64,000 nucleotides of DNA from Escherichia coli (GCF_048403405.1 NZ_CP183129.1); one strand, 5' to 3'. Positions 16,224 through 51,310 are shown, numbered from the stretch's first letter. Made by a program: numbers and translations. The notes: generated by a model from the sequence alone, not told the origin.

Positions 16224-16805
<582 letters not shown>

Positions 16806-16812
16806 TGATTTC

Positions 16813-16840
16813 TCGCGCGGGCAATCTTGCCCGCGCTTCT
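16813..16840 (+). terminator. hairpin after ppiA
   Basis: Inverted repeat gcgcgggcaa/ttgcccgcgc. Confidence 0.5.
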
Positions 16841-16909
16841 GCTCTCCCGGCGTAACCCGGATTTGCCGCTTATACTTGTGGCAAATGGACACGTTCAGGG
16901 AGGCATCAA

Positions 16910-17077
16910 GTGAAGAAACTCACCGATAAGCAAAAGTCCCGTCTCTGGGAGCTTCAGCGTAATCGTAATTTCCAGGCCAGTCGCCGTCTTGAAGGCGTCG
17001 AGATGCCTTTAGTCACTCTTACTGCCGCAGAGGCTTTAGCGCGCCTTGAAGAGCTGAGGAGGCACTATGAGCGATAA
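16910..17077 (+). CDS. yhfG: small protein upstream of fic, antitoxin-like
   Basis: 55 aa GTG-start ORF overlapping the fic start; contains SRRLEG matching the [ST]xxxE[GN] Fic-inhibitory motif. Confidence 0.7.
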
Positions 17078-17669
17078 ATTCGGCGAAGGGCGCGATCCGT
17101 ATCTTTATCCTGGCCTTGATATCATGCGTAACCGGCTGAACATCCGCCAGCAGCAGCGGCTGGAACAGGCCGCTTACGAAATGACGGCGCTGCGTGCTGC
17201 GACCATTGAGCTTGGTCCGCTGGTGCGCGGTTTACCGCATTTGCGCACTATCCATCGCCAGCTGTATCAGGATATTTTCGACTGGGCGGGGCAATTGCGT
17301 GAAGTTGATATTTATCAGGGCGATACGCCGTTCTGCCACTTTGCCTATATCGAAAAAGAGGGCAATGCCCTGATGCAGGATCTGGAGGAAGAAGGTTATC
17401 TGGTTGGCCTGGAGAAAGAGAAGTTCGTCGAGCGGCTGGCACATTACTATTGTGAAATCAACGTGCTGCATCCCTTCCGTGTGGGAAGCGGACTGGCACA
17501 GCGGATCTTCTTCGAGCAACTGGCGATTCATGCGGGCTACCAACTGAGCTGGCAGGGTATCGAAAAAGAGGCCTGGAATCAGGCAAATCAGAGTGGGGCA
17601 ATGGGGGATCTCACCGCACTGCAGATGATATTTAGCAAAGTGGTAAGCGAAGCCGGGGAATCTGAGTAA
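17067..17669 (+). CDS. fic: Fic family protein
   Basis: 200 aa; Fic motif region reads [12 protein letters not shown]. Confidence 0.9.
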
Positions 17670-17700
17670 AATAGCGCGGTTCTTTCGTACCGGAGCCGCC

Positions 17701-18264
17701 ATGATCCTGCTTATAGATAACTACGATTCTTTTACCTGGAACCTCTACCAGTACTTTTGTGAACTGGGGGCGGATGTGCTGGTTAAGCGCAACGATGCGT
17801 TGACGCTGGCGGATATCGACGCCCTTAAACCACAAAAAATTGTCATCTCACCCGGACCCTGTACGCCAGATGAAGCCGGGATCTCGCTTGACGTTATTCG
17901 CCACTATGCCGGGCGCTTGCCGATTCTTGGCGTTTGCCTCGGTCATCAGGCAATGGCACAGGCATTTGGCGGCAAAGTTGTGCGCGCAGCAAAGGTCATG
18001 CACGGCAAAACCTCGCCGATTACACATAGCGGTGAGGGCGTATTTCGGGGGCTGGCAAATCCACTTACCGTGACACGCTACCATTCGCTGGTGGTGGAAC
18101 CTGACTCATTACCAGCGTGCTTTGAAGTGACGGCCTGGAGCGAAACCCGCGAGATTATGGGGATTCGCCATCGCCAGTGGGATCTGGAAGGTGTGCAGTT
18201 CCACCCGGAAAGTATTCTCAGCGAACAAGGACATCAACTGCTGGCTAATTTCCTGCATCGCTGA
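17701..18264 (+). CDS. pabA: aminodeoxychorismate synthase glutamine amidotransferase subunit
   Basis: 187 aa class I glutamine amidotransferase. Confidence 0.95.

Positions 18265-49327: not shown

Positions 49328-51310
<1,983 letters not shown>

Follow-up and report, generated by a model that had tools for sequence, protein, structure and literature searches.

The yhfG-fic pair of an Escherichia coli chromosome is the described EcFicA/EcFicT module, with a Fic loop that departs from the AMP-transferase signature

[quoted passage not shown] YhfG and Fic were predicted to be a toxin-antitoxin pair already in 2009, and co-crystals of the two E. coli proteins (5JFF and 5JFZ) were described by Stanger, Harms, Dehio and Schirmer in PLoS One in 2016, who renamed the pair EcFicT/EcFicA (PMC5033356). 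EcFicT and EcFicA were found to form a stable 1:1 complex in solution by SEC-MALLS, with a mostly hydrophobic interface of 1641 Å2 and a Tm of 63 °C, which was 10 °C lower with the E28G antitoxin (PMC5033356). In the crystals, S24 and E28 of YhfG clamp R146 of Fic, the final arginine (R2) in the signature loop (PMC5033356). Neither auto-adenylylation nor target adenylylation by EcFicT was detected, even when the inhibition motif was mutated, for example with the E28G antitoxin, and the missing AMPylation and ATP binding were put down mainly to L143 in place of the first loop arginine (R1) and to a hydrophobic residue in place of D/E (PMC5033356). The EcFicT pocket was described as reshaped for another substrate, in a conserved and vertically inherited subgroup in the Enterobacteriaceae, and the protein was termed "toxin-like", without reported activity (PMC5033356). 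A fic deletion strain was as viable as the wild type, and the sole known fic phenotype is that of G55R, an allele with no apparent change in structure (PMC5033356). In the Enterobacteriaceae, fic homologs always lie between ppiA and pabA (PMC5033356, S4 Fig), and a ficA homolog lies 5' of every homolog shown except that of Escherichia albertii TW07627, where a point mutation has produced a stop codon (PMC5033356). A paper from 2026 still calls the biochemical mechanism of EcFicT elusive (PMC13327609).

We analyzed the yhfG-fic locus in a 64-kb stretch of an E. coli chromosome, referred to here as the window. The gene order in this part of the window is nirB-tsgA-ppiA-yhfG-fic-pabA-argD-yhfK. 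The features considered below are the following.

16815..16836, + strand: stem-loop GCGCGGGCAA/TTGCCCGCGC at the 3' end of ppiA, just past the ppiA stop codon (from folding and conservation)
16863..16884, + strand: promoter block TTGCCGCTTATACTTGTGGCAA (22 nt), with TATACT at 16871-16876 (from conservation and published primers)
16910..17077, + strand: yhfG (= ficA, encoding EcFicA), GTG start, 55 aa, class I Fic inhibitor ("antitoxin") (from the ORF list)
16979..16996, + strand: codons of SRRLEG, YhfG residues 24-29, the [S/T]xxxE[G/N] inhibitory-helix motif (from the raw sequence)
17067..17669, + strand: fic (encoding EcFicT), ATG start, 200 aa, FIC-domain protein (from the ORF list)
17067..17077, + strand: overlap of yhfG and fic, 11 nt, with the yhfG stop lying over the fic start in a different frame
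17469..17504, + strand: codons of the Fic signature loop, residues 135-146 (from the raw sequence)
17701..18264, + strand: pabA (aminodeoxychorismate synthase component 2), starting 31 nt 3' of fic (from the ORF list and RefSeq)

Both products were readily assigned. YhfG matched PF10832 with 85.9 bits (cut-off 22.6), and Fic matched PF02661 over residues 58-152, with H135 present, at 53.1 bits (cut-off 24), placing the protein in the FIC/Fido domain family. The NCBIfam equivalogs PRK10204 and PRK10347 matched YhfG and Fic end to end, the latter with 430.8 bits against a cut-off of 181 bits. A RefSeq genome that is 100% identical over 16800-17700 carries ficA and fic at identical coordinates, labeled "FicA/YhfG family antitoxin" and "putative adenosine monophosphate-protein transferase". 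Searching PDB sequences returned 5JFZ_A for Fic (E = 2e-133) and both 5JFF_B and 5JFZ_B for YhfG (E = 4e-30); the structure of this near-identical E. coli Fic has the FIC fold with seven helices (PMC5033356). The locus is therefore E. coli's chromosomal EcFicA/EcFicT (YhfG/Fic) module, in which a class I FicTA pair is inherited vertically.

Compared with EcFicT/EcFicA of K-12 (UniProt P20605; 5JFF, 5JFZ), the window has the same locus, with identical motifs, overlap, neighbors and promoter. The protein chains differ from those in 5JFF and 5JFZ at 3-4 of 200 positions in Fic and 1-2 of 55 in YhfG. Window Fic has Ser2, Arg27 and Glu118 where the crystallized chains have Gly, His and Ala, and window YhfG has Arg51 where EcFicA has Ser. 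The engineered changes of the crystals, G55R of Fic in 5JFF and E28G of YhfG in 5JFZ, are absent from the window; residue 55 of Fic is Gly (codon 17229-17231), so that this is the wild-type allele and not fic-1 (G55R). The substitutions are strain-level only, and none falls in the Fic loop, in SRRLEG or in the listed pocket residues. The window comes from a minority E. coli lineage: its allele is in the minority, with 227 of the 5425 genomes at least 99% identical over the region and 5195 in the 95-99% band.

An earlier note on this DNA had read the 55-aa YhfG as overlapping the fic start and as carrying an SRRLEG that fits [ST]xxxE[GN], and the Fic motif as departing from the canonical one at three positions. 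We found the same. The ORF list and the raw sequence both give the 11-nt overlap at 17067-17077, and SRRLEG occupies residues 24-29 of YhfG. Relative to HxFx[D/E]GNGRxxR, exactly three specified positions of the Fic loop are changed, D/E to V139, N to S141 and R1 to L143, while H135, G140, G142 and R146 are kept. The canonical AMP-transferase signature, which calls for an Mg-binding acid, a central Asn and two arginines, is thus absent from window Fic. The alignment to VbhT and other Fic proteins that had been suggested was run, and the loop aligned gaplessly both to that of Fic-1 from Pseudomonas bijieensis 2P24 (HPFREGNGRAQR) and to that of VbhT from Bartonella schoenbuchensis (HPFREGNGRTLR).

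By rough estimate, a few percent of proteins of 55 aa would contain [ST]xxxE[GN] at random, so the significance of SRRLEG rests on its conservation and on the crystal structures. S24, L27, E28 and G29 were invariant in a motif alignment of five YhfG-type partners, one of which is just 28% identical. The locus has both marks of a class I Fic, namely a small 5' gene in the operon encoding a helix with [S/T]xxxE[G/N], and a salt bridge of the inhibitory Glu to R2, the latter through the sequence match to 5JFF/5JFZ and the published contacts. With YhfG as the query, phmmer retrieved only its own entries from the PDB at E <= 10; AntF and VbhA, the partners of Fic-1 and VbhT, are too diverged to be reached by a single 55-aa query. 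The kinship of YhfG to other partners therefore rests on PF10832 in the partner encoded on contig L006 (described below), on the motif alignment and on the structures.

The earlier note had also taken the pair for a class I inhibitor/Fic module and had doubted that Fic is an active AMP-transferase. The first point is settled by the co-crystals 5JFF and 5JFZ, which hold both chains, and the second agrees with the published failure to detect adenylylation (PMC5033356). Two findings that would have spoken against the module can be set aside, since YhfG does bind Fic in the published 1:1 complex (PMC5033356) and the loop deviations are typical of a conserved subfamily with a partner and not of a dead subfamily without one. 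The question of what this Fic does was posed, and for the most part dealt with, ten years ago; the reading is correct and not new, and nothing in it goes past what the 2016 paper already reported (PMC5033356).

To characterize the conservation of the module, we searched for the 901-bp region in complete E. coli genomes and found it in 5425 of 5426, essentially single-copy and chromosomal. The order ppiA-yhfG-fic-pabA-argD and the same 11-nt overlap were also found on contigs of Fic homologs named Leclercia, Klebsiella and Salmonella. The patchy, horizontal and mobile-element-linked distribution typical of type II TA systems was not observed; the module occupies a single chromosomal site that is syntenic across genera. 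All 120 of the closest cluster representatives (at least 80% identity) carry a degenerate loop. Among the 113 of these that are full-length, H135, P136, F137, G140, G142, Q145 and R146 of the loop are invariant in every sequence, as are T40, Y67, F71, D10, Y12 and G55. Of the three changed sites, position 139 is filled by L, I, V or F in every case, position 143 by L, M or I, and position 141 by S (70) or N (43), and R1 and the Mg-binding acid are lacking throughout this EcFicT-like subgroup. Subgroup 3 of the enterobacterial FicT proteins was described by hydrophobic residues in place of R1 and of D/E, a pocket of A36, T40, Y67 and F71, a DPY segment (10-12) with R138, and the ppiA-pabA site (PMC5033356). 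All of its residues are present in window Fic and are invariant or nearly so in the 113 homologs.

Searching 1.8 billion representatives exhaustively with HMMER gave 2554 relatives of Fic at E <= 1e-10. A recognizable loop was present in 128 of the best 149 of these 2554 (50%-identity cluster representatives), and it was fully canonical in 113 of the 128. The 15 non-canonical loops comprised 7 from fragments or members of the EcFicT lineage, 7 that differ at the last residue alone, and one with a variant of its own (P0263). In the sampled canonical relatives, a Glu is aligned with A36. Because canonical loops dominate the nearest representatives and a Glu aligns with A36, the loop state in the window is derived. 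Values of dN/dS between genera were low, at 0.04-0.10 for fic, 0.05-0.20 for yhfG, 0.05-0.08 for pabA and 0.02-0.04 for ppiA, and are approximate since intergenus dS is saturated (>1). Even so, they place fic and yhfG clearly under purifying selection, at a level similar to that of pabA. Near-universal presence, synteny, invariant residues and low dN/dS indicate that both genes are maintained and that Fic is no decaying remnant.

A few relatives had unusual structures. One homolog at a ppiA-pabA site (P0129; 48% identity, loop YFFCFGNGLIQC, no yhfG called) was considered as a sign of a decaying lineage and rejected as an artefact, because its contig (L005, Logan SRR18107612) has a GC skew of ~0.99 and contains almost no C. 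This contig was probably assembled from C-to-T converted reads of the bisulfite type. Its "proteins", among them P0129, which shows H->Y and R->C changes, sit in protein databases as apparent divergent homologs. Another contig (L007:270-1028) encodes a 252-aa single-chain YhfG-Fic fusion with both PF10832 and PF02661 (P0001), from a cluster of 15 sequences of which one contig was found. Comparison with window positions 17030-17100 traced this fusion to a 1-nt deletion in the GAGG run 5' of the fic start (CTGAGGAGT to CTGAGAGT), so that the junction reads ...LEELR-VT-MSDKF. As the two genes overlap by 11 nt, the loss of a single base makes one class II-like protein, its inhibitor in cis, out of the class I pair; the fusion may be a real variant or a read or assembly error. 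A second YhfG-Fic fusion (P0005, 233 aa) has an internal deletion. At the ppiA-pabA site of an enterobacterium, a single 2.7-kb contig (L009:1011-1613) encodes a 200-aa product (P0122, 68% identity) that joins YhfG residues 1 to ~29 to Fic from ~33. Its YhfG part ends in ...QASSRLD, so that E28 is replaced by D, and its loop HPFFVGSGRAQR keeps R1, has F for R138 and lacks the DPY segment. This product could be a transitional form in which the motif is decaying and the inhibitor is fused, or it could have arisen in assembly.

We then analyzed the expression signals. Across E. coli, Leclercia, Klebsiella and Salmonella, the 22-nt block TTGCCGCTTATACTTGTGGCAA showed no variation despite saturated synonymous sites in the flanking genes. 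It coincides with the classical "fic promoter", which has been reported to be strictly Eσ38-dependent (PMC3089606). The fic-promoter primers of that study map to 16704-16721 and 16962-16980 in the window, and a BanI site (GGTGCC) at 16724-16729 reproduces the stated 256-bp fragment (-157 to +99). The transcription start would lie at ~16882, 28 nt 5' of the yhfG GTG, as the fragment coordinates place +1 there. The model σ38 "fic promoter" actually drives yhfG first. A σ70 promoter scan found no consensus 5' of yhfG, which fits the σS promoter recognized by conservation and the published primers. Both genes have a strong Shine-Dalgarno sequence, GGGAGG at 16898-16903, 6 nt 5' of the yhfG GTG, and GAGGAGG at 17056-17062, within yhfG and 4 nt 5' of the fic ATG. 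Translational coupling from yhfG to fic would fit the 11-nt overlap and the GAGGAGG inside yhfG.

The stem-loop 3' of ppiA is a 9-bp GC-rich hairpin of -20 kcal/mol (z = -3.7 against shuffles), and its CGCGGG...CCGCG arms are conserved in four genera. It was not reported by the terminator scan, and its T tract is weak. This stem-loop is probably the ppiA terminator, which would separate ppiA from the yhfG-fic unit. On the other side of the unit, the terminator scan found no terminator-like site on the + strand in the fic-pabA gap, and pabA is probably co-transcribed in part with fic. Such co-transcription has reportedly been described in older literature. Komano and coworkers reportedly proposed in 1991 that Fic affects PAB/folate synthesis; a literature search gave nothing usable on a link between fic, pabA and folate. 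An Rfam scan of the 64-kb window gave no match in or near yhfG-fic. The only Rfam match in the window was the unrelated Alpha operon ribosome-binding-site element (RF00140) at 50875-50986 on the + strand, with 102.7 bits.

Based on these observations, we consider it moderately likely that Fic is still an enzyme, acting on a substrate other than ATP and gated by YhfG. The argument is that the His, the anion hole, R146, the lineage-specific pocket and the partner's Glu have all been held invariant under purifying selection; from this conservation we infer an enzyme with another substrate. The first helix of YhfG pushes SRRLEG into the Fic active site, where S24 and E28 bind R146 (PMC5033356). 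Fic keeps the FIC fold, the catalytic His135, the anion-hole glycines and R146, and has lost three ATP/Mg-binding determinants (changed to V139, S141 and L143), with co-varying changes close by such as A36. On our reading it would not be an AMP-transferase and may instead be a functional enzyme derived from canonical FicT toxins and reshaped. A hydrophobic groove, with A36, F71 and V139 along it and Y67 and T40 at its border, may accept a different substrate, probably one that contains a phosphate or diphosphate. By blocking R146, YhfG would restrain this activity, which may matter in stationary phase or under stress, when σS drives the operon.

The viability of the fic deletion strain, and the fact that the sole phenotype belongs to G55R with its unchanged-looking structure (PMC5033356), count against an enzyme gated by YhfG. 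The absence of a growth phenotype and the position of the G55R gain-of-function site far from the active site (PMC5033356) agree with a different explanation, in which Fic is a catalytically dead pseudoenzyme and the complex acts by binding alone, as a scaffold or regulator (for example in cell division or for pabA/folate) with no chemistry at the loop. The lack of activity despite directed attempts (PMC5033356), the loss of three ATP/Mg-binding residues and the strictly conserved linkage to pabA also point this way. However, a dead enzyme does not readily explain why His135, both anion-hole glycines, R146 and the pocket residues T40, Y67 and F71 are invariant in 113 of 113 homologs, or why the partner has kept the active-site-directed S24 and E28 in every genus examined; an inhibitor aimed at a dead site is not expected under purifying selection. 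This conservation could partly reflect what the loop and the interface require structurally. Overall, we regard a purely binding role as unlikely.

A still less probable explanation, drawn by analogy with Fic-1-AntF, is that the YhfG-Fic complex is a de-modifying enzyme, such as a deAMPylase, and that Glu28 of YhfG would be catalytic in it and not just a plug. YhfG would then be a catalytic subunit of a permanently assembled core-genome complex that has lost the "writer" reaction and would work solely as a hydrolase, taking AMP, or a nucleotidyl or phospho group related to it, off GyrB/ParE or some other target. Between residues 1 and 196, Fic-1 and window Fic align without a gap (E = 1e-48), H135 and R146 have identical numbers in both, and AntF has S24 and E28. 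Fic-1-AntF deAMPylates GyrB and requires H135, E28 and complex formation to do so (PMC13327609). EcFicT/EcFicA retains all three requirements, its missing residues are the ones to which ATP binding is assigned, and it is a very stable complex encoded by a core-genome module. On the other hand, deAMPylation by Fic-1-AntF needs a divalent metal, whereas the Mg2+-coordinating acid of canonical Fic is V, L or I here, and the hydrophobic groove suggests a new ligand rather than AMP-tyrosine. If such an eraser did exist, it could shield enterobacteria from canonical FicT toxins arriving via plasmids or secretion systems.

That Fic is an ordinary FicT toxin which, on release from YhfG, AMPylates DNA gyrase and topoisomerase IV is very improbable: reviews do group "E. 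coli FicT" with the gyrase/topoisomerase IV AMPylators (PMC10886550, PMC7758455, PMC11869752), one of them stating that ectopic expression inhibits growth, the fold and antitoxin geometry are close to those of VbhT/VbhA, and fic-1 cells filament as with gyrase-targeting FicTs, but the published AMPylation assays were negative (PMC5033356), the whole subgroup has hydrophobic residues in place of R1 and the Mg-binding acid, and the mechanism was still called elusive in 2026 (PMC13327609). The RefSeq name "putative adenosine monophosphate-protein transferase" is thus probably a misnomer, and the review tables listing E. coli FicT as a gyrase AMPylator are probably wrong. Set against the structure paper (PMC5033356), the RefSeq name and these reviews look like a case of annotation and review drift. 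The substrate and target of EcFicT are a recognized problem and not a new finding; our reading of the locus restates the known puzzle of the chemistry of the founding Fic and opens no new one.

Of the systems with described biochemistry, Fic-1/AntF of P. bijieensis 2P24 (PDB 8WT0; PMC13327609) is the closest relative of window Fic. Like the window pair, it is of class I, with a small inhibitor gene immediately upstream, and its structure has an RMSD of 0.9 Å to 5JFF (PMC13327609). It differs in the canonical HPFREGNGRAQR loop and Glu36, where window Fic has V139, S141, L143 and A36. Fic-1 is toxic and AMPylates GyrB at Tyr111, and its complex with AntF is a deAMPylase (PMC13327609), whereas AMPylation by EcFicT was not detected. 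Canonical-loop Fic proteins were also found on two contigs, L006:2831-3600 (HPFREGNGRAQR) and L008:2788-3579 (HPFREGNGRTQR), with small 5' partners carrying SLRLEG and SFALEG, respectively. They adjoin HigB/HTH and AbiEii/primase-like genes and are ordinary FicTA pairs in non-syntenic contexts, in contrast to the fixed module of E. coli.

The next relative after Fic-1/AntF is the prototype class I FicTA, VbhT/VbhA of B. schoenbuchensis (3SHG, 3ZC7, 3ZCB). VbhT matches window Fic with E = 4e-33 and ~33% identity, at an RMSD of 1.36 Å (PMC5033356), and VbhT/VbhA has the same salt bridge of the inhibitory Glu to the last loop Arg as YhfG-Fic. Unlike window Fic, VbhT is encoded on a plasmid, ends in a BID secretion domain at its C terminus, and has the canonical loop HPFREGNGRTLR together with AMPylation activity on GyrB and ParE. 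The helices of VbhA are three and run antiparallel; in YhfG there are two, connected by a loop, along with an 8-residue deletion (PMC5033356). Finally, the Doc kinase of phage P1 and the phosphocholine transferase AnkX of Legionella are FIC folds with diverged loops that perform other chemistry and keep the catalytic His, and were drawn on as analogies in the structure paper (PMC5033356). They are not close relatives of window Fic, and they differ from it in their loop changes and in their partners, Doc being paired with Phd and AnkX having none. The reactions of Doc and AnkX are known, unlike that of window Fic.
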